Made by a program: the position numbers and the translations under genes. Of a stretch of DNA of 64,000 nucleotides, positions 2,823 to 63,983 are shown in pieces. Location: the sequence record LR597647; one strand, given 5' to 3'. The stretch's first letter is position 1; every line of letters begins with the position of its first letter. The DNA is from Escherichia phage rV5_ev147. The notes under the pieces are model-generated. The model was not told the origin of the DNA and made no database searches. It saw only the letters and a program-made list of their open reading frames with translations.

Positions 2823-3169
2823 AGAAGTTGATTGTGTGGCTAGATGACTTGAGAGATCCGTCAAAGTACGGGCTCCAAGACGCTGTTTGGCTAAAGAATT
2901 CCTCCGAGTTTATAGATTTTATTAACGATAATAGAAAGCTCTACAGACGCGTTTCTGAGTGGCATATGGACAACGACCTTGGAGAGGTATTCGAAGGGTA
3001 CGATTGCCTATCTATGTTGGAGGAAAAATTTGTATTTGGTAAGCCTCCTGTAGTTGACAACGTGAAGATTTTCGTGCATACTTCTAACCCATCAGCGGCT
3101 CGTAAATTCATGCTTGCAGCTGACTCGTTTAAAAAGTTTGGAATAGAGATTAAACAAAACATCTACTGA
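2819..3169 (+). CDS. Hypothetical protein, first gene of the Sir2 operon
   Basis: ORF overlaps the upstream stop (ATGA); 9 bp before the Sir2 gene; no motif recognised. Confidence 0.45.
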   Translation: MKKLIVWLDDLRDPSKYGLQDAVWLKNSSEFIDFINDNRKLYRRVSEWHMDNDLGEVFEGYDCLSMLEEKFVFGKPPVVDNVKIFVHTSNPSAARKFMLAADSFKKFGIEIKQNIY

Positions 3170-3177
3170 GGACACTT

Positions 3178-3939
3178 ATGCGACGACTGATTATTATCTC
3201 CGGTGCTGGTTTGAGCGCTGAATCTGGTATTCCCACTTTCCGATCTGGTAGCACTGCAATGTGGGAGAATTTCAGCATCGATGAGGTGTGCAACATCCAC
3301 ACCTTTGCCAAGAACTACTATAAGGTGCATGACTTTTACAATGCACGTCGTGTAGCTTTAGGCAGTGTTGAGCCTAACCTTGCACATCTTCGGATCGCTG
3401 AGTGGTATTCCCGCTGGTCTGGTCGTGTGATCAACCTTACCACCAATGTAGATGATTTGCTGGAGCGTGCTGGTGTAAAACATGAAGATATTTTACATGT
3501 CCACGGGTATTTGCCAGAAATAGTCTATGAGGACGATGAAGGAAGTGACGTCATTAAGGACATTGGATACTCTGAGGTAGACGCAGGAAAGTATACCTGG
3601 GTTAAGCCTAATGTGGTGTTCTTCGGAGAAGTAGCTCCGAAGTATACAGACATGTATGACCTGTTGACTTCTCTTACGAGCAATGATATGGTTATCCTTG
3701 TAGGGTGCTCCAACACAGTTATCAATTTTAACTGGGAGCTATTCCCTGCCTGCAATAAGGGAACCAAACTACTGATCGTTAATAAATACGACTCACAGCA
3801 TCTAGAGGAGAATGGCATTTCACGTAGTGATATTTACCAGTATGAGGATCGTGGCATCCCAGTTTGGTTTAACGGTGCGGTTGATGCCTTCTCTGATAAA
3901 ACATTCATTGAGACTGTAGAAAACTTTATGGAACTTTAA
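3178..3939 (+). CDS. SIR2-family NAD-dependent deacylase / ADP-ribosyltransferase-like protein
   Basis: Canonical sirtuin motifs GAGLSAESGIPTFRS, TTNVDDL, HVHG; no CxxC zinc module seen. Confidence 0.7.
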   Translation: MRRLIIISGAGLSAESGIPTFRSGSTAMWENFSIDEVCNIHTFAKNYYKVHDFYNARRVALGSVEPNLAHLRIAEWYSRWSGRVINLTTNVDDLLERAGVKHEDILHVHGYLPEIVYEDDEGSDVIKDIGYSEVDAGKYTWVKPNVVFFGEVAPKYTDMYDLLTSLTSNDMVILVGCSNTVINFNWELFPACNKGTKLLIVNKYDSQHLEENGISRSDIYQYEDRGIPVWFNGAVDAFSDKTFIETVENFMEL

Positions 3940-3952
3940 AAGGAGACCTTTA

Positions 3953-4666
3953 ATGCTGAATACTAAATTAATTGACAACCTGGAAAAACTATCCCAACCT
4001 GAAAACTACCTTTGGTCTGCCAACTGGGTGGAAAACTGGAACCGTGTGGCAGCTAAAGTGAAAAAATCATACACACCATTCGAATTACAGCTTAGCTTCA
4101 TTGAGGAAGAGTTCAATGAAGTTTTGGAAGAGCTGGAGAAAGGTGATGGTGGAGATCACCTGCTAAAGGAGGCCTGCGATCTTCACGTTGTCACAAGTTA
4201 TGCAGCTTATCTTGTTAATGACAATCACGAAAAGTGGTCAAACCTGTTTGATAATCCACGAGGTCTTAAGTTCAAGATCGGTGAGTTCTATGATACACTG
4301 ATCGCTGCGAAAAACACCTCTAAGCAAAGAGCATCCGCTTACCGCTTAGCAGAGTTGTCAACAGCTTTGCTGTTCCAGCTTCGCGGCGATGTGTGCGGGA
4401 TGATGCGTAAGGTTCTCAAATCGAATGACAGCAAGTTTGCACGGGTCAACCATCTACGGTATTCACACGGTGCCAGTGCAGATATGCCTGCTGAACAACT
4501 CATCGAGTTGGAGATTAAAGATCTTGAGCGACGCTTTGATGGTCGATATGAAGGTTTTGTTGCTAAGGAAGAATTCTACAACGGTAATAAAGTTATCATA
4601 TTCCTTGACAGTAAAGGTAAGATCATGAAGCCTTCGAGCTTCAAGGATGTAACAGAGTATATTTAA
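3953..4666 (+). CDS. Putative MazG-like nucleotide pyrophosphohydrolase
   Basis: EEEFNEVLEELEK...EACDLH resembles the EExxE...ExxD MazG motif; 14 bp after Sir2. Confidence 0.35.
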   Translation: MLNTKLIDNLEKLSQPENYLWSANWVENWNRVAAKVKKSYTPFELQLSFIEEEFNEVLEELEKGDGGDHLLKEACDLHVVTSYAAYLVNDNHEKWSNLFDNPRGLKFKIGEFYDTLIAAKNTSKQRASAYRLAELSTALLFQLRGDVCGMMRKVLKSNDSKFARVNHLRYSHGASADMPAEQLIELEIKDLERRFDGRYEGFVAKEEFYNGNKVIIFLDSKGKIMKPSSFKDVTEYI

Positions 4667-4672
4667 CAACAT

Positions 4673-4698
4673 AGCCGGGATTACCCGGCTTTACTTGT
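4673..4698 (+). terminator. Rho-independent terminator after the Sir2 operon
   Basis: AGCCGGG-atta-CCCGGCT stem-loop followed by TTTACTTGTT. Confidence 0.5.
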
Positions 4699-4699
4699 T

Positions 4700-5038
4700 G
4701 TGGAAAGTATGCAAGTGAGGCAGATAGTTATGTACAAGCACTCTAGAGATCTTGAAAACGATGCTGTGTTTGGGGATCAGATGAAAGAGTTGGTTAAACT
4801 CATAGGCAGGATAGAGGATAAGTTTGACACTAAGATCTACATCGACAGCAAAGTATTCAACCACAAAATATGGACAAATCTGTGTGTTGGACTACATGGA
4901 GATAAAGATGCGGTAAATTTAGTTGTAATTAAGTTCATAGTGTGGCAGAATAAAACTATAAATTATTACGATCCACATCTGCTTGTTTACCCGATAAAAG
5001 ACCTATTAGATAAGGAGGACTGCAATGCCGTTATTTAA
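4700..5038 (+). CDS. Hypothetical protein
   Basis: ORF in dense co-directional array; start not refined. Confidence 0.4.
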   Translation: MESMQVRQIVMYKHSRDLENDAVFGDQMKELVKLIGRIEDKFDTKIYIDSKVFNHKIWTNLCVGLHGDKDAVNLVVIKFIVWQNKTINYYDPHLLVYPIKDLLDKEDCNAVI

Positions 5039-5294
5039 TCTTGCTAAACCTGTAGAAGCACACCAGTTTGACGGAAGCTCTTCATCAGTATCTGATCTGC
5101 AACGGTGGATTGATACAGGTGTGTTTACATCGTCACCTGTTCGGACCAGAGATCTTCGTCGTATGTGTGAGCTTGTAGAGCCGTTTGGTAACCTAGTCTT
5201 GCACCAGGGTGATTGGCTTGTTGATTTTATGGGGGACTGGTTGGTAATGAGTAAAGAAGAGATGTTTAAAATTTTTAAGGAAGAGGTAGAGTAA
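5025..5294 (+). CDS. Hypothetical protein
   Basis: ORF with GGAGGA-like SD upstream; no motif recognised. Confidence 0.4.
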   Translation: MPLFNLAKPVEAHQFDGSSSSVSDLQRWIDTGVFTSSPVRTRDLRRMCELVEPFGNLVLHQGDWLVDFMGDWLVMSKEEMFKIFKEEVE

Positions 5295-6577
5295 TGCATC
5301 AAATCAAAACAACACTGTACGCACTGAACAAAGATGGCAGCTACCAACAGTGGAAAGTATTCACGGATGGTGATAAGGTTATCGTAGAGTTTGGCAAGCT
5401 TGATGGTAAACTGCAATACAAAGAGACGATCTGCACACCTAAGAACGTGGGTCGCGCCAATGAGACTACAGCTGAGCAACAGGCCGAGCTGGAAGCGATC
5501 AGTAAGTGGGAAAAACAGGTCCGACTAGGGTACGTGGAGAGTATGGAAGATTGTGAGCAAGGTGTTGATCTTTTACCAATGTTAGTGCATGACTACCTGA
5601 AGCGTGGCAAGGCACTTAAATTACCTTGCTGGATCTTGCGTAAGTTAGATGGCCTTCGTCTACTTGTTGTTTTCCAGAATGGTGAGCCTAAATTTATTTC
5701 CCGTGGTAATAAGTCCTACCCTATTCAAGGAAAGCTTCTGGAGCAACTTCGCTCTTTCCACCTAACCACCGGGATTAAACAGCTCGACGGAGAGCTCTAT
5801 ATTCATGGTCTTCCTCTGCAGAAAATAGTGTCTCTTGCTAAACGGTGGCGCACACAGGAAGAAATTCAGGCCGAGATCGATAAAGACTACAAGGCAGATA
5901 AAAAACGCCGTCAGGCTGCGATTAAGGCAGGTTTAGCAACATACAAAAACTTCAACAAGATGGACATTCCTGTTGATGTTGAGCCTGTTCGTGATGATTT
6001 GCGTTACGGAGGGTACTGCAGCTACGACTTAGAGTATCATATTTTCGATATTCCTAGCGATAAGGTGTGGTGGGATCCTGAAACAGAGTCTGGACGCTGT
6101 AAGGATCTTATGGAGGCAAATGGTGCTATTGCTTCTTTGATGCTTGATCATATTAAGGTTGTTGATGCAGAGCTTGCATACACAGTTGATCGGTGCGAAG
6201 AGTCTGTTGGTATATTTATGTCTGAGGGATATGAAGGTACCATTATGCGTAACTTCTGTGGTAAATATGAGTATGGTCAGCGAACATCTGAAGCATTGAA
6301 ATGGAAAAAGTTCAACGACGCAGAGGTGAAAGTTATTGACGTTGAGAAAGATAAGAATGATGAAGGTGTTCTTATCTGTGTTGACAAGGAAGGTGTTGTT
6401 GTTAAAATGAAGATGAAAGGCACGCACGAGGAGCGTAGCTATGACAGGATGCAGGAAATGATCGGCAAGTTTGTCACCTTCAAATATCAAGCAAGGACAG
6501 AAGACAACAACTACCAATTCCCTGTCGGTATCTGCGTCCGAAATGTTAACCCAGACACTTGGGAGGTGCTGGAATGA
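5294..6577 (+). CDS. ATP-dependent DNA ligase
   Basis: Motif I KLDGLR, motif IV-like EGTIMRN, motif V-like KWKKF; ATGA overlap with upstream ORF. Confidence 0.55.
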   Translation: MHQIKTTLYALNKDGSYQQWKVFTDGDKVIVEFGKLDGKLQYKETICTPKNVGRANETTAEQQAELEAISKWEKQVRLGYVESMEDCEQGVDLLPMLVHDYLKRGKALKLPCWILRKLDGLRLLVVFQNGEPKFISRGNKSYPIQGKLLEQLRSFHLTTGIKQLDGELYIHGLPLQKIVSLAKRWRTQEEIQAEIDKDYKADKKRRQAAIKAGLATYKNFNKMDIPVDVEPVRDDLRYGGYCSYDLEYHIFDIPSDKVWWDPETESGRCKDLMEANGAIASLMLDHIKVVDAELAYTVDRCEESVGIFMSEGYEGTIMRNFCGKYEYGQRTSEALKWKKFNDAEVKVIDVEKDKNDEGVLICVDKEGVVVKMKMKGTHEERSYDRMQEMIGKFVTFKYQARTEDNNYQFPVGICVRNVNPDTWEVLE

Positions 6578-57982: not shown

Positions 57983-58347
57983 TATTTGTCTCCTTGTTCT
58001 TCGTTAGTGTTTGCCGTGTGTGCAAACCCTGCTTGAATTAATTTGTCCTGAACTTGAGCCAGCAGGCCCATTGCAAAACTTGTGGTCCCAGAGAGGGCCA
58101 TCAGCATATCTCGTTGTTGAGCTACCCAACCTAAGGCATAGTCCAAACGACGATATTTTTCTTCTTCACGCAAAGCTTGGAATAATTGTTCAGCCTCTGG
58201 CTGTTGTGTGAGCTCCTGAAGTCTTCCCATGAAAGAAGAAAGCACTAGCAGAAGAGACACTTGATCTTTACTTAACCCTAAGAAAAATTCTTGAGGTTGT
58301 TCTTGCTCGTTCATCGCAACCGACGCTTGATCGTTCATTTGTTCCAT
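57982..58347 (-). CDS. Hypothetical protein
   Basis: 121-aa ORF; stop overlaps the SSB start (TAATG). Confidence 0.45.
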   Translation of the reverse strand: MEQMNDQASVAMNEQEQPQEFFLGLSKDQVSLLLVLSSFMGRLQELTQQPEAEQLFQALREEEKYRRLDYALGWVAQQRDMLMALSGTTSFAMGLLAQVQDKLIQAGFAHTANTNEEQGDK

Positions 58348-58430
58348 TATGGAATCTCCGATTTTATTTGAACAACATAGAAGGAGACACTATTTTAGCA
58401 TCCCCTTCTGTAAATTACAATAGGTATTTG

Positions 58431-58676
58431 TTAGCCAATCACTTCGAAAGTTCCCCAATTCCCGTCCAGCAGGCAGGTGATCGGATCTCCATCGTCGTCA
58501 AAGATTTCAAAGTTTTCAGCATCCAGGATGTGGCCCTCGAACACAATACTCTCGTCGCCACCACCAGAAATAACAGCGTATTCCTTACCTTGAGTCAAGT
58601 TTTGACACCCTTTGCCACCAAAACCTACTTCCACACAACGTACTTTCTGTCCTGCGCGAGCAACTACTTCAGCCAT
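58431..58676 (-). CDS. Hypothetical protein
   Basis: 81-aa ORF. Confidence 0.4.
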   Translation of the reverse strand: MAEVVARAGQKVRCVEVGFGGKGCQNLTQGKEYAVISGGGDESIVFEGHILDAENFEIFDDDGDPITCLLDGNWGTFEVIG

Positions 58677-58693
58677 CTTAAGGTCTCCTGATA

Positions 58694-59014
58694 TTAATCG
58701 TCAAGTTCAAAATAGATTTTAACAGCTTCATCAAAGATTGGAATCCCGATGTTGTTGATAAGCTGCCAAACTACCATATCTTTACCTGGATCTGGGAGAA
58801 TGTCAACCTTTCTCCATGCGCTGTATATCCAGTTCGGACCACCTTCTGCACTAACTGGCAGATTTTCACCAGCTTCCTGTAGATACTTATACAGCAAAAG
58901 ATATTCTGGATACTCTAGAACACTGTCCTCTGTAGTATATAGCAGTTCACGGTATACTTTTAAAAACCCTGCGGGGGTGATGTTTTCAGTCTTCATTTGC
59001 TGCTTCTCCTGCAT
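58694..59014 (-). CDS. Hypothetical protein
   Basis: 106-aa ORF. Confidence 0.4.
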   Translation of the reverse strand: MQEKQQMKTENITPAGFLKVYRELLYTTEDSVLEYPEYLLLYKYLQEAGENLPVSAEGGPNWIYSAWRKVDILPDPGKDMVVWQLINNIGIPIFDEAVKIYFELDD

Positions 59015-59378
59015 TCATCAGATCTGCCATAGCGTCACCAACGAAGAGGACAACCACATCGTTGACAGCGTCAGCATCATCTTTGTTGACGTTGCTGAAT
59101 TTAGGACACACAGCAATGATCATATAGACACCGTTGCCCACCTGAACTGTCCGTGTGGTGCACATCATGGCGGTATTTGTGCCTTCTTTGAAGGCGAAGC
59201 CTTGAAGACGCTCCTCTAGAGTGTTACCGGTAGATTTCAGAAGCGCCAGCTCGTCCAAGGCATAGATGATATCTCCGGAAGTTAGTGTTGCCTTTCCATC
59301 AGACACCATAATCACTCCATCAGCACCGTCAAGCTTAGAGGCTTCAAAGATATCAATATCCCAAATATTTTTCATCAC
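58986..59378 (-). CDS. Hypothetical protein
   Basis: 130-aa ORF. Confidence 0.4.
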   Translation of the reverse strand: MMKNIWDIDIFEASKLDGADGVIMVSDGKATLTSGDIIYALDELALLKSTGNTLEERLQGFAFKEGTNTAMMCTTRTVQVGNGVYMIIAVCPKFSNVNKDDADAVNDVVVLFVGDAMADLMNAGEAANED

Positions 59379-59707
59379 GCTTCCTCGTCGTCTAAGTAAT
59401 CATCAAGAGAGGTGAAGATTTCACCGAAGTATTCTAAGATTTCTAGCTCACGTGTGGTGCAGCAAACATAATCTCCTTGGTCGTCCTTAATAGTGGCCTC
59501 TTTACCCAGAATATCTACTTCAAGTTCATCGTTCAACAGGACGGCCCCTGTGTAAACTTTGTCAGCTGTGCAGTCCCGAAAAGCAGAGTCCTTCTCCAGA
59601 TAGTCTGGCTTAACCTTGGCTTTAATTCGTTGATATTGTTTGGTCATTGCTGTGGTCCCCTTTCGTTTTGATAGGGCCATTATAGTAGGCCCTATCACTG
59701 TTGTCAA
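59375..59707 (-). CDS. Hypothetical protein, paralog of ORF 59711
   Basis: SAFRDCTADKVYTGA matches RAFKDCTVGAIYEAE in the neighbouring ORF. Confidence 0.4.
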   Translation of the reverse strand: MTTVIGPTIMALSKRKGTTAMTKQYQRIKAKVKPDYLEKDSAFRDCTADKVYTGAVLLNDELEVDILGKEATIKDDQGDYVCCTTRELEILEYFGEIFTSLDDYLDDEEA

Positions 59708-59710
59708 GTA

Positions 59711-59965
59711 TTAATGTTCAGGTTTTACAAAAACTACTTCATTAACAGTGCACCAGACAGAGTCTCCTTCATCATCTTTAAAGGTAAGGCACTGTGCTGA
59801 GTTTTCCAGCTCATCGATCTCTTCTTGTGATAAAGGGGCCCCTTCTTCCAGGAGGGCTTTTACCAGAGGGTTCTCACAAAACTCTGCTTCATAAATTGCA
59901 CCGACTGTGCAATCTTTAAAAGCTCGGTCATTTGCAACGCATTCTGACTTCAAAGTAATTTTCAT
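59711..59965 (-). CDS. Hypothetical protein, paralog of ORF 59375
   Basis: Shared (A)F(R/K)DCT block; acidic Cys-containing small protein. Confidence 0.4.
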   Translation of the reverse strand: MKITLKSECVANDRAFKDCTVGAIYEAEFCENPLVKALLEEGAPLSQEEIDELENSAQCLTFKDDEGDSVWCTVNEVVFVKPEH

Positions 59966-60041
59966 CTTAGCAGTCTCCTTAGTTATTTAAAAATCAACGC
60001 TCTGTTTGTGTAAAGCATCTTATATCTAATCTTACTTCTTG

Positions 60042-60413
60042 TCAATGACTATTTTCAATCAGCCACACAGGGTCGAGGTAAATTTGTTGGCGTGTTGCCC
60101 AATGACAAACTTCATTGTACATCTGAACCTCTTTGTCCGTCAGTTCACGAATAGGCTCATCTATACCCCCATTTTTGTGGTAATCCCAGTCGGCATCGAT
60201 TTCCCACAGCCATGACTTGTTGTCACCACGCTTACGCACACAGAAGTCACCAGGACGGCCTGCCAGTGCATTTAAGAACTCGTTCTCCGCTCGCTCCTGA
60301 AGAATACTAAGGAGCAAAACGTTGGAGCATGACCGTAAAATATGCTTCAGCTCACAATCATCAATCTCAACTTCAATACGTTGTTTGACTGTGTGGGTAC
60401 CTTTTACTAACAT
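60042..60413 (-). CDS. Hypothetical protein
   Basis: Start refined to ATG 60413 after GAGGAGG. Confidence 0.4.
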   Translation of the reverse strand: MLVKGTHTVKQRIEVEIDDCELKHILRSCSNVLLLSILQERAENEFLNALAGRPGDFCVRKRGDNKSWLWEIDADWDYHKNGGIDEPIRELTDKEVQMYNEVCHWATRQQIYLDPVWLIENSH

Positions 60414-60423
60414 ACTACCTCCT

Positions 60424-60618
60424 CTAAACGAACTCTGCAAGAGTTGTGTTGTTCACTGCACCGCAGTAAATGGAGTATCCCAGCCCATTAGAGTGCAGAA
60501 ACCACGGCGTGCCGAAATTATCTTTCACGTAGACATCACCGTTGTTTGTAAAGGGCCAATATTCTTCCCCAAGGGTAAAATACCTATTCATACCTTCAGC
60601 AAGATACTTTACTTTCAT
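60424..60618 (-). CDS. Hypothetical protein, paralog triplet member
   Basis: GTPWFLHSNGLGYSIYCG matches GVAWFISHLANGEYHIYG in ORF 60615. Confidence 0.4.
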   Translation of the reverse strand: MKVKYLAEGMNRYFTLGEEYWPFTNNGDVYVKDNFGTPWFLHSNGLGYSIYCGAVNNTTLAEFV

Positions 60619-60842
60619 AGGTCCTCTTCAACAACTACAAACTTGGCAAGCAAAGTGGTTCCGTAGATATGATACTCGCCGTTTGCCAGATGGGAGATAA
60701 ACCAGGCAACCCCTTCCTCGTCTTTAATCATTTTATTTGCACGAGCTTTATCGTAATAAACCTCGTAGGTCTTTCCTTCTTTAAAGAATGACAGGTCTGT
60801 CATCTTTTCTTCTACAAAAGTAGCTTTAACCAAAGTTGTCAT
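60615..60842 (-). CDS. Hypothetical protein, paralog triplet member
   Basis: Shared WF(L/I)SH...G...IYG block. Confidence 0.4.
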   Translation of the reverse strand: MTTLVKATFVEEKMTDLSFFKEGKTYEVYYDKARANKMIKDEEGVAWFISHLANGEYHIYGTTLLAKFVVVEEDL

Positions 60843-61156
60843 TGATCGGTCTCCTTCTTGTTAAGTCTGAATACTGCAATAATAGCATTCCCAAGGTGCA
60901 GTGTCAAATCATTTCCAAGATACCACAGCATCCCACGGTCATCTTTAATGAAAGGGTAGCAATTTGGTGCCTTCTCTTTAATGAAAGGGTGACAATCTGG
61001 TGCCTTCCAGACATTGTACACTTTCCCAACCTGAAAGAAATCAGGCCCTGTCGGGATTTTGGTGCCTGGCCACACTTGAGATACCTGAACACACTCCACC
61101 TGCATAATAACAGGGATAGTCATGGATGTAAATGTTTTTGTTGGCTCTACTACCAT
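60839..61156 (-). CDS. Hypothetical protein, paralog triplet member with internal 11-aa tandem repeat
   Basis: Start refined to ATG 61156 after AAGAGGAG; GMLWYLGNDLTLHLG block; 33-bp tandem duplication at 60943-61008. Confidence 0.4.
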   Translation of the reverse strand: MVVEPTKTFTSMTIPVIMQVECVQVSQVWPGTKIPTGPDFFQVGKVYNVWKAPDCHPFIKEKAPNCYPFIKDDRGMLWYLGNDLTLHLGNAIIAVFRLNKKETDQ

Positions 61157-61205
61157 AAAAGTCTCCTCTTTGCTCAACAACACTTCCATGTGTTGATAGT
61201 TTACA

Positions 61206-63983
61206 TTAGTGACAATCACCCCAATTACGACCACACAAGTATTCACCTGTGATCTGGAACGGGACTCCCATCATTTTAGAAGCTTGCCAGAAGCAATGCA
61301 CCACCATTTCACCCACAGGGCTCCAGATAAGTTCAAGCTTCCCGTCATCGTTCAGGATAGGATCGTACACCGTGTTTCCGTCTCTGTCAACCACTTCGTT
61401 TCCGTTCTCATCCTTGCGTGCCTTTTTGTACTTATGACCGTCAAACACATGAAGTTTGGCTTCCTGCTCTGCCTTAAATGCTTCCAATTCTTCAATTGTG
61501 TCGAAGGTGTACACAGTCTTATACTTAGGCGTGTCAGGGACTTGAAGTTGGTACTCATCATGGTAATAAATAATACGACGAACACCTTCATCGTACCACC
61601 CACGCTTCACCATTTGGTGGTGCATGAGTATCCCAACTAAGTCACACAACGATGCACCGCCATTTTGTTGGTATGCATTGAGTAAAGAGTGTTTAGATCG
61701 AGTCCAGATAGCATGACCATCAAAAGAGTAGATAAACTTCTTACCCGTTGCTTCCCAGAATTTCTCCAGATCTTCTTTACGCCCCTTAAGACCCGGGTTG
61801 GCATCCCAGAGTGCATCGATTACCCTTTGTCCCAACTCTGGAGAGATATCCAGCATATCTGCAACTTTATCTTTTTGTGCCCCGTACATAACCCCATACG
61901 TGATAGGTTTACCGTCGTTACGAGATACCTCTCTGCCTGCTACTTTTGTATATGCCTCGGCGTTGTTTTGGTGTGCGTCTCCGTTACTTACAACATCATA
62001 ATACAAGCCGTTGTCGAACTCAAAGGCACCCCAAGCCCCGATAAGCTGCTCTAAGTTGGACCCGTCAATACCGATCTCAAAGTATCCCGGAGGAACACCC
62101 CACAGACTACGCATCTCTTTACCCATAACCACTTTAGGAGATGGTTTAGGCATGTTCGCACAAATACTGTGTTTCTGTCGGGAAGTGTTTGTTAACCCAG
62201 AACTTTTAGCAGGAAGCTTATGGTCAATCTTCAAACGTGGGTGATTAAGAAGACCAGTATCAACCTTATCCTCCTTGATTGGATCAAGTACCGATCTGCG
62301 GTTTCGCAATGATAACCACAAGACGATATCTTTAGCCATCTCTCCGTTCAATTTTTCAAGATTAGGGCATAGGTGTCCAAACGTATCTTTCAGTTGCGGA
62401 GAAGTAATAAGTGCCCTAGCTTTTCTACGTATTTTCCCGAATACTTCCTTTTTAATCCTTTCGGAGTTAGGAAAGCTTCGGAACTTGTGCACGGTTGTCT
62501 GGAACTTAGCATCAGTTTTGTTCCAGAAGTTGATAATCAGGTCACAATACTCTGACTCTAAAAGCTCGTCCATATATGCATATACTCGTGCATCAACATC
62601 TGCATCAGGTAGAGCTTTCTTCTTGCTGTCTTTAGTTACATCCTTAGTTCTCCACATTGTCGGAAGCCAACCAGCACTGATCAGGTATCGCTTAATGTCG
62701 TCCTGGTTGCTGATTTTCATAGGTATCTTGCAGTCCGGCATTCGCTTCTGCTGTAGATCACTTATTGCCTGATCCATTAGCTCTTTAGGTAAAGGTTGTG
62801 GTGTGGAGGTGCCCTTAATATAGCCTCTCAAGAAATCAGCCATCTTATCGGGGTCTTTGCAGCCCATCTCTTCACACCATTTTATCCCCATCTTACTGAC
62901 ATCTCCTGTAGAGGTAAATGCTCGCTTAGGCGGGGCTTTGAACTCTAAAGCGCTCATATCTACAGGATAGCCAAGCTTATCTTTTAACCATTTCCAACCA
63001 TTATTGGAGATTGTCCCATCTTGGTTAAACGGCTTTTCAGGGAACTTGGGCCGCTGAGACATTGACAGCTCTTTTAAAGGTAGTTGCGGTTCAACACGAT
63101 CAGCGATTTCTTTCATCCACGCATCGCAACGGTCACGTAAAGCAATAGCCCCATCTATGTCAAAATACACACCCTGACGGGCCTGCAGCTCCATCAGGAA
63201 GTGCTGCAGCATGCCTCGGCGTAATGCGTTCTTCCAGGTGATCTTCTTGAACCCTTTCGGCTTCTCTTTGGCAGGATCGTACATAAAGTTCTGCATGTCA
63301 GATTTGCCGTAGAATACACCTTTTGATTCCGCTACCAGCTCTTTCCAGAGCAGCTCCTGGATGATAACGTCCTCGAATACACGATCCACATACTTCCACA
63401 ACGGAAGATCGCGCCAGTCATCAATTTGAACTTTCTGGTTACCAAGGGCGTAGCCCCATGCCATAAGGCCGTGAGGACCGACAGGCTGCATTTTCTTAGT
63501 AACCGGGTTGAATACAGAGTCCGGACAACCTTTTGGTAAAGGGCGATCAGGCCATAAGATTCGGCTCATCGCCAACGTATCAAACAGGTTGACCTGGTGG
63601 TCGTTGATAGTCCCCATGCATTTAGGATCACGGAACATATCAAAATGAATACCGGATAATCTTTCCATCAGCATAAAGTCATAACTGTAGCAGTTATGGC
63701 AGTTCAAAGCTGTTGGTGACCAGTCGGAATTGCCTGTAAGCCAACCTTCTAACTCCGAAAAATCTGCTATGCGAACTTCAAAATCTTTATAAAGAGTTTT
63801 CTTTGCCAGAATAAAGTTCTTAGCCTTCTCTATATCCTCCTCGGAGTAGTGTGTGCGGTCATTTAGAGGAAGGAACAGCATAAAACGGTTCTTATTCAGC
63901 TCTTTAAACAGGCCGCAGTGATAATAAAGATCTGGGTCTTCCAGCAAACCGGATGACTCAAAATCGAAAGACCACATGCTCAT
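61206..63983 (-). CDS. Family A DNA polymerase, T7 gp5-like, with 3'-5' exonuclease domain
   Basis: 925 aa; FDFESSG (Exo I), LMAWGYALGNQK, GIDGSNLEQL, TYGVMYGAQ (motif B), YYHDEYQ (motif C), C-terminal GRNWGDCH parallel T7 gp5 as recalled; AAGGAG SD. Confidence 0.8.
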   Translation of the reverse strand: MSMWSFDFESSGLLEDPDLYYHCGLFKELNKNRFMLFLPLNDRTHYSEEDIEKAKNFILAKKTLYKDFEVRIADFSELEGWLTGNSDWSPTALNCHNCYSYDFMLMERLSGIHFDMFRDPKCMGTINDHQVNLFDTLAMSRILWPDRPLPKGCPDSVFNPVTKKMQPVGPHGLMAWGYALGNQKVQIDDWRDLPLWKYVDRVFEDVIIQELLWKELVAESKGVFYGKSDMQNFMYDPAKEKPKGFKKITWKNALRRGMLQHFLMELQARQGVYFDIDGAIALRDRCDAWMKEIADRVEPQLPLKELSMSQRPKFPEKPFNQDGTISNNGWKWLKDKLGYPVDMSALEFKAPPKRAFTSTGDVSKMGIKWCEEMGCKDPDKMADFLRGYIKGTSTPQPLPKELMDQAISDLQQKRMPDCKIPMKISNQDDIKRYLISAGWLPTMWRTKDVTKDSKKKALPDADVDARVYAYMDELLESEYCDLIINFWNKTDAKFQTTVHKFRSFPNSERIKKEVFGKIRRKARALITSPQLKDTFGHLCPNLEKLNGEMAKDIVLWLSLRNRRSVLDPIKEDKVDTGLLNHPRLKIDHKLPAKSSGLTNTSRQKHSICANMPKPSPKVVMGKEMRSLWGVPPGYFEIGIDGSNLEQLIGAWGAFEFDNGLYYDVVSNGDAHQNNAEAYTKVAGREVSRNDGKPITYGVMYGAQKDKVADMLDISPELGQRVIDALWDANPGLKGRKEDLEKFWEATGKKFIYSFDGHAIWTRSKHSLLNAYQQNGGASLCDLVGILMHHQMVKRGWYDEGVRRIIYYHDEYQLQVPDTPKYKTVYTFDTIEELEAFKAEQEAKLHVFDGHKYKKARKDENGNEVVDRDGNTVYDPILNDDGKLELIWSPVGEMVVHCFWQASKMMGVPFQITGEYLCGRNWGDCH

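Follow-up and report, generated by a model that had tools for sequence, protein, structure and literature searches.

Old Tandem Paralogs and a Segregating In-Frame Duplication Downstream of the DNA Polymerase Gene in Escherichia Phage rV5_ev147

Introduction

Tandemly expanded families of small early or accessory genes are known in large lytic phages, and coding tandem-repeat polymorphisms (minisatellites, or variable number tandem repeats, VNTRs) are a known kind of length variation within genes. Here we describe a locus of Escherichia phage rV5_ev147 at which the two meet: a block of nine small genes, A to I, downstream of the family A DNA polymerase gene (PolA), in which gene I carries a 33-bp in-frame tandem duplication. 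The analysis was made on a stretch of 64,000 nucleotides of the phage (sequence record LR597647), hereafter the window, and positions are those of this stretch unless another contig is named. Bases 58300-61300 are matched at 100% by Escherichia phage rV5_ev156 (LR694165.1, Vequintavirus), a phage for which a literature search found nothing, and at 80-99% identity by 116 further rV5-like records.

Vequintavirus phages are used for therapy and biocontrol. Few small phage proteins are known to be read by a bacterial immune sensor, and the fold of Gp54, the phage protein with which we compare some of the products of this block, is rare. Gp54 of Escherichia phage Bas11 (PDB 9AXB) is the second trigger of the defense protein CapRelSJ46, and CapRel is not triggered even by close homologues of Gp54 (Zhang et al., Nature 2024, PMC11578894). 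For the locus itself, the rV5 genome paper assigns it to the transcription unit "genes 10-1-238-164", gives a total of 33 host-type promoters for the whole genome, and makes no mention of these small genes, of paralogs or of duplications (PMC3606486).

Two Old Families of Tandem Paralogs

Between 58.4 and 64 kb every gene is on the minus strand; read from the polymerase gene, the order is PolA, I, H, G, F, E, D, C, B, A (Table 1). Smith-Waterman scores of protein pairs among the nine neighboring genes were compared with 500 shuffles, and two families stood out. Proteins D and E form the first (z=12.1; BLASTP E 4e-9), with the common blocks AF(R/K)DCT and (I/F)KDD(Q/E)GD-V-CT. The second comprises G, H and I (H-I z=8.9, BLASTP E 1e-5; G-H z=7.4, E 2e-4; G-I z=3.0, E 0.017), whose genes are linked by ATGA stop/start overlaps between I and H and between H and G. 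All other pairs had z <3. Both relationships had been proposed from short shared blocks in a preliminary description of this DNA, and both hold up against the shuffled controls.

Profile searches gave the same grouping. Each protein found its own PHROG family (E-values of 1.4e-67 for I, 2.9e-53 for H, 6e-49 for G, 3.3e-59 for D and 2.5e-59 for E), and cross-matches connected D to the family of E (5.9e-6), E to that of D (9.6e-5), G and H both to phrog_3249, and H to the family of I (0.007). Protein I matches PHROG 12922 in two stretches because the 94-position profile is single-copy, without the duplication. An hmmsearch of all 733 six-frame open reading frames in the 64-kb window detected no further member of either family. 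We also considered a superfamily uniting D/E with G/H/I through a shared (I/F)KDDxG motif and rejected it (hhalign probability 1%, 9 aligned columns), together with the related idea that gene A is a relative of D/E (Smith-Waterman z only 1.7-2.8).

Identity among members is ~30% in both families. All genes from A to I are under purifying selection, with ratios of nonsynonymous to synonymous substitution rates (dN/dS) of 0.01-0.37, and of at most 0.15 against the two most divergent relatives, and the D/E and G/H/I genes are each present in ~115 Vequintavirus records. From this low identity, the purifying selection and the genus-wide conservation it follows that the gene duplications are old: D/E and G/H/I are two old, tandemly duplicated families in a small accessory-gene block downstream of the polymerase. 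Word-index and full hidden Markov model (HMM) searches, made for the G/H/I family and for that of E, recovered members almost only from Vequintavirus-like contigs; two other matches, to the beta-propeller repeat protein P0043 and to the low-complexity repeat P0045, appear to be fortuitous matches to repeats.

Copy number in the G/H/I family is not fixed. The divergent metagenomic Vequintavirus-like contig L024 (Logan SRR3715619) carries seven such genes at its positions 2930-5352 (90, 67, 75, 64, 71, 67 and 75 aa), versus three in the window, and keeps the gene order PolA-I-...-F-E-D-C-B-A. In an unrelated phage-like contig, L023 (Logan SRR28381859, 2550-4668), two adjacent proteins of 358 and 346 aa each include four tandem copies of a ~50-residue G/H/I-type domain, which therefore also exists in concatenated form. 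Two further features of L024 concern the surrounding block: an Ead/Ea22-like gene is inserted after its gene I ortholog, and its gene B is 97% identical to that of the window while the neighbors are at 43-70%, so that the region is strongly mosaic.

A Segregating 33-bp Duplication in Gene I

Tandem Repeats Finder located the repeat at 60942-61007 (period 33, 2.0 copies, 90% matches, score 111), and 20 shuffles of the window yielded no 33-period repeat with at least 30 of 33 matches. On the coding strand the duplicated unit is GAAGGCACCAGATTGTCACCCTTTCATTAAAGA; it is in frame with gene I, which therefore reads ...KAPDCHPFIKE-KAPNCYPFIKD.... The tandem duplication and its 11-residue product are thus as first described, and the polymerase gene does lie directly upstream of gene I, but two details had to be amended. 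The sole register giving 3 mismatches is 60942-60974 / 60975-61007, one base away from the 60943-60975 / 60976-61008 of the preliminary description, which gives 4. Moreover, the contrast drawn there between EK and DD at the ends of the two copies is not copy divergence: the residues EK stand between the copies because the junction AAAGA/GAAGG itself creates Glu-Lys, and therefore only three base differences separate the copies (Y/H, D/N and a synonymous TGT/TGC). We found no microhomology at the unit ends. A hairpin or microhomology mechanism for the end points was set aside, as only a weak GGAAGG/CCTTTC pairing, judged by eye, could be proposed.

Both states of the repeat are common in nature. 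Among the 115 phage records matching gene I, 105 have a 289-bp single-copy span, and nine records from seven phages (ev156, ev158, ev168, slur12, slur16, APECc02 and a fragment of EC22.5-2) have both units in one piece; about one-seventh of the related phages share the duplication. The slur16-type duplicated allele is also found in a 136,967-nt human-gut metagenome contig. Naming duplicated alleles by the markers of copy 1 and copy 2, the H:N form of 105 aa, which is the exact protein of the window, is encoded on 125 public contigs, and fourteen other variants of 105-112 aa, including Y:N and Y:Y, on 1-6 contigs each. The single-copy forms of 94 aa occur on 519 (Tyr), 94 (His) and 67 (Asn) public contigs. 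No record or contig carrying two junctions, i.e., more than two units, was found. Scans of IMG/VR for the junction and for the collapsed His allele gave no matches, an uninformative result since only two wild-type-pattern contigs are in that collection. The comparison of copy number across related phages that the preliminary description had called for thus identifies the duplication in gene I as a heritable, naturally segregating allele.

That description had also spoken of recent duplication. Duplication as a process is evident at both scales, of genes and of the 33-bp unit, but the word "recent" fits neither: the paralogs are old for the reasons given above, and the 33-bp repeat is younger, yet did not originate in this genome, its junction recurring in seven sequenced phages and in metagenome contigs, with no fewer than four haplotypes in the flanks.

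Linked markers connect the duplicated and single-copy alleles. Single-copy His alleles (ev146, DrSchubert) are identical to copy 1, and HeinrichReichert has a single-copy Asn allele that matches copy 2 of slur16 exactly, down to the linked synonymous TGC and ATC. Three of the flanking haplotypes have a single-copy twin identical over 0.5-1.5 kb, with zero differences outside the repeat and a difference of one unit within it. Measured upstream and downstream of the repeat, the identical tracts are 310 and 151 nt between ev156 and its twin ev146, 1189 and 348 nt between the slur16 type and DrSchubert, and, between the Y:N alleles and RudolfGeigy, 481 and 260 nt (L019, L020) or 325 and 121 nt (L018). 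Compared with each other, the duplicated alleles of ev156 and slur16 already differ at 46 nt on the upstream side of the repeat and at 9 nt on the downstream side. The neighboring genes each have a different closest relative, and recombination tracts of a few hundred bases are therefore normal here. A Y:N or H:N allele has no de novo route from its twin, and repeated loss of a unit is the simplest reading.

From these patterns we infer that the duplication arose once, probably by illegitimate replication slippage or by unequal exchange without microhomology. It would then have spread among co-infecting phages through homologous recombination in the flanks, reaching several haplotypes, and would have collapsed repeatedly to one copy by recombination between the units. 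The crossover point would decide which markers are retained, those of copy 1 (His) or those of copy 2 (Asn and TGC).

Among the nine genes, constraint is strongest on gene I (dN/dS 0.00-0.01 at dS 0.63, against B9-1 and FV3; dN ~0.005). The only common amino-acid polymorphisms of its protein are at residues 53 (D/N/E) and 55 (Y/H/S/Q), inside the duplicated segment. The gene I orthologs P0037-P0039, from vB_Eco_Alma and two other contigs, have a frameshift immediately upstream of this segment, enter an alternative frame (window 60904-61092) and stop after 72-73 aa; errors of sequencing or natural knock-outs would account for them.

The block has another small length polymorphism of repeat type, at the 3' end of gene D (window 59375-59420, minus strand), where a 12-nt in-frame indel affects the acidic tail. 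The SLDDYLDDEEA of the window is SLDDEEA in RudolfGeigy, A141 and B9-1, one LDD(Y/E) unit being lost.

Predicted Folds and a Candidate Function

In the AlphaFold2 model, protein I has six predicted strands and a long loop between strands 1 and 2. Copy 2 of the repeat would form strand 3, and copy 1 (residues 56-64, with a predicted local distance difference test score, pLDDT, <50) would loop out, so that the extra 11 residues are placed by the model between strands 2 and 3, the position of the n-Src-type specificity loop of SH3 domains. We accordingly model the G/H/I proteins as ~50-residue six-stranded SH3-like barrels of the kind represented by Gp54 of Bas11. The predicted structure shows what marks the Gp54 type, a small barrel of six strands in which a prominent loop joins strands 1 and 2, and also a five-stranded barrel topology that can be superposed on SH3, KOW or Tudor domains. 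Protein E is predicted, with uneven confidence, to be a generic SH3-like barrel with a helical insert. Matches in BFVD were uncharacterised small coliphage proteins. The Gp54 structure was released in 2024 and should therefore lie outside the AlphaFold2 training set.

The likeness to Gp54 is a resemblance of modeled fold, not demonstrated homology. No sequence links to the neighbors of Bas11 gp54 were found. Weak profile matches in the PDB (DUF459, PatB and glucansucrase repeats; E 0.001-0.2) were set aside, as the fold search gave them no support.

Speculatively, our preferred function for the G/H/I proteins is that of small non-enzymatic protein-binding accessory modules acting on host or defense proteins, and in protein I the loop joining strands 2 and 3 might be a tolerant or diversifying contact surface.

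Alternative Explanations

Taking the results together, we consider it likely that the locus combines old accessory-gene families, a duplication of single origin that spreads and collapses, an insertion in a loop of a modeled SH3-like barrel and, more speculatively, products that serve as protein-binding modules. A number of points weigh against this joint reading. Collapse, and not patch-wise gain, is a direction of change that we only infer. A single origin requires concerted change in the allele of L016 and L017, in which both copies have a TAT CCC that is absent from the other duplicated alleles and from its nearest single-copy relative, ECP32. Pfam gave nothing for G, H and I and only sub-threshold matches for D and E, and the PHROG families of all five proteins are labeled "unknown function". 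The AlphaFold2 model of protein I is of moderate confidence, being built on a shallow alignment of 14 sequences (pLDDT 69.7; predicted template modeling score, pTM, 0.64). With regard to Gp54, an hhalign comparison with the G/H/I profile was not significant (probability 0.2%, P 0.32), and 9axb was not among the PDB sequences that a profile search with E values up to 10 recovered. The apparent clustering of variable residues in the loop is a count over ~30 listed variants, and the truncated copies in a few records mean that gene I may be dispensable.

As to how the repeat came about, tandem repeats are prone to mis-assembly, but it is hardly conceivable that this one was introduced in the sequencing or assembly of the record. 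The identical junction and copy-specific markers recur in seven phages from different sequencing groups, in the human-gut metagenome contig and on the 125 contigs encoding exactly this protein, and at 66 bp the repeat is within the span of any sequencing read. The presence of only two adjacent copies that are 91% identical would fit a duplication that arose de novo and recently in this genome and then acquired three private point mutations. Such an event is nevertheless very improbable, since all three differences are shared with other duplicated alleles and are also met in single-copy alleles (94 contigs with H, 67 with N and its linked TGC), and since the duplication lies on at least four haplotypes. 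A mutational hot spot, at which the same 33-bp duplication arose independently more than once, deserves more attention, at least for the FV3-like lineage of L016 and L017. Their allele has the same junction, its copies differ by one base, and both share the states AAG/CCA/TAT/CCC, in contrast to the remaining duplicated alleles; in the flanks, differences are found at 20-21 of 252 sites. We still judge independent origins unlikely. The junction AAAGA/GAAGG is identical, and neither microhomology nor a convincing hairpin favors those end points; the Y:N and H:N alleles are impossible de novo from their single-copy twins; and recombination tracts of a few hundred bases are so pervasive that each copy could plausibly have been converted in short patches. 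For L016 and L017 we prefer a single origin with later concerted conversion, because the junction is identical and shows no microhomology.

As to what the repeat does, the 11 residues may quite possibly be a neutral indel in a tolerant loop, whose frequency reflects hitch-hiking and recombination with no arms race involved. Copy 1 is modeled as a disordered loop, both copy-number states are common, gene I is truncated in a few phages and no phenotype is known. Against neutrality, the loop holds the only common polymorphisms of the protein (residues 53 and 55, with three to four states each), which is suggestive and not a test. At the other extreme stands a reading that we regard as rather doubtful, in which the G/H/I proteins are Gp54-like ligands of host immunity or of host-takeover targets and an arms race is played out on the loop joining strands 2 and 3 in protein I. 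The proteins would then inhibit one defense system and/or be sensed by a CapRel-type sensor; duplication would relax constraint and allow new residues (His, Ser or Gln at 55; Asn at 53), and collapse would return these to a single-copy protein. Were this true, it would constitute a small-scale duplication-divergence-collapse route to escape variants. A role of the 33-bp units as a DNA or RNA element (iterons, or a regulatory or origin element) rather than as coding sequence would be in keeping with the promoter-like site ~35 bp downstream (60907-60879) and with the adjoining replication genes. We find it very hard to reconcile with a repeat of only two copies that is always in frame, lacks its second copy in most relatives, has no notable internal symmetry and varies between copies mostly at non-synonymous sites, all within a gene under extreme purifying selection on its protein.

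Promoter-Like Sites and Neighboring Genes

Three promoter-like sites were detected in the block (Table 1). At the one upstream of gene D, the -10 is bracketed by a 9-bp inverted repeat (59670-59678 / 59688-59696, GATAGGGCC ... GGCCCTATC). The site is conserved in 9 relatives, and FFH2 has a compensatory double change (GGACC/GGTCC), which suggests that the inverted repeat is a conserved hairpin or operator. We preferred the MTKQ start for gene D because the longer annotated start overlaps the -10 of this consensus promoter; the database starts at the overlapping ATG, found in several annotations, are probably wrong. In all 12 aligned relatives, the site within the 3' end of gene I keeps its two hexamers unaltered, although its spacer shows synonymous changes.

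Table 1. Genes, repeat copies and promoter-like sites of the locus, in window positions.
Feature	Position	Strand	Description
Gene B	58694-58996	minus	Pfam DUF7238, 30.2 bits versus a cutoff of 27
Gene D	59375-59647	minus	90 aa, start MTKQ; PHROG 11936, unknown function; paralog of E
Promoter-like site, sigma-70, upstream of D	59679-59707	minus	TTGACA-17-TATAAT, 12/12 consensus
Gene E	59711-59965	minus	84 aa; PHROG 12544, unknown function; paralog of D
Promoter-like site, sigma-70, upstream of E	60017-60045	minus	TTGACA-17-TAAGAT, 10/12 consensus
Gene F	60042-60413	minus	between G and E
Gene G	60424-60618	minus	64 aa; PHROG 12802; G/H/I family; start overlaps stop of H (ATGA)
Gene H	60615-60842	minus	75 aa; PHROG 12623; central G/H/I member; start overlaps stop of I (ATGA)
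Gene I	60839-61156	minus	105 aa; PHROG 12922; AGGAG ribosome-binding site before ATG at 61156
Promoter-like site in 3' end of I, upstream of H	60879-60907	minus	extended -10; TTGACA-17-TATTAT, preceded by TG
Repeat copy 2 (3')	60942-60974	minus	(K)APNCYPFIK(D); markers AAT (Asn) and linked synonymous TGC
Repeat copy 1 (5' in reading direction)	60975-61007	minus	(K)APDCHPFIK(E); marker CAC (His)
PolA, family A DNA polymerase	61206-63983	minus	925 aa, intact; upstream neighbor of gene I

The polymerase gene, intact in the window, is interrupted by an HNH homing-endonuclease gene in many close relatives (L002, L005, L009, L011, L018, L019, L021 and L024), including ev146, APECc02, FV3, FFH2, HeinrichReichert and others. 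In those relatives it is annotated as two pieces or as a joined coding sequence. Which relatives have this insertion shows no correspondence with which have the 33-bp duplication. Among the nine small genes, only gene B exceeds its Pfam threshold.

Sixteen GenBank records named "Campylobacter phage" (MG0656xx) also match window positions 58300-61300, with 96.9-97.1% identity for the nine that were listed. The single one inspected, MG065672, is marked UNVERIFIED and is unannotated. These names are probably the result of mislabelling or contamination.

Comparison with Known Systems

The locus offers natural near-isogenic pairs that differ locally by 11 residues (ev156/ev146, slur16/DrSchubert and the L020 type/RudolfGeigy). 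It also provides a genus-restricted family, G/H/I, that is linked by its modeled fold to Gp54 of Bas11; should this link have a functional basis, the family would merit a search for new immune triggers or inhibitors in Vequintavirus. The two proteins come from different groups of phages, Gp54 from the Drexlerviridae and protein I from the Vequintavirinae, and in the model the loop joining strands 1 and 2 is longer in protein I, which also has the 11-residue insertion. Compared with SH3-like small beta-barrels in general, these proteins have neither a proline-rich-ligand binding signature nor sequence similarity; the model of protein I has a sixth strand in place of the 3-10 helix, and that of protein E a helical insert.

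What we describe is ordinary phage micro-evolution, in which old tandem paralogs are accompanied by a segregating in-frame duplication, and it is a new example of two known kinds. Like the coding tandem-repeat polymorphisms of the minisatellite or VNTR type, gene I has units arranged head-to-tail and in frame, in one or two copies, and contraction by recombination between the units appears to have been repeated. Unlike contingency-type repeats, its unit is long (33 bp), the copies have diverged, at most two have ever been seen, and there is no frameshifting on/off switch. The paralogs, for their part, resemble the expanded families of small accessory genes of large lytic phages in being adjacent genes for 60-105-aa proteins with overlapping stop and start codons and sigma-70-like promoters, in being restricted to a genus, and in varying in copy number (3 here, 7 in L024); they differ from them in that no Pfam family covers either G/H/I or D/E.

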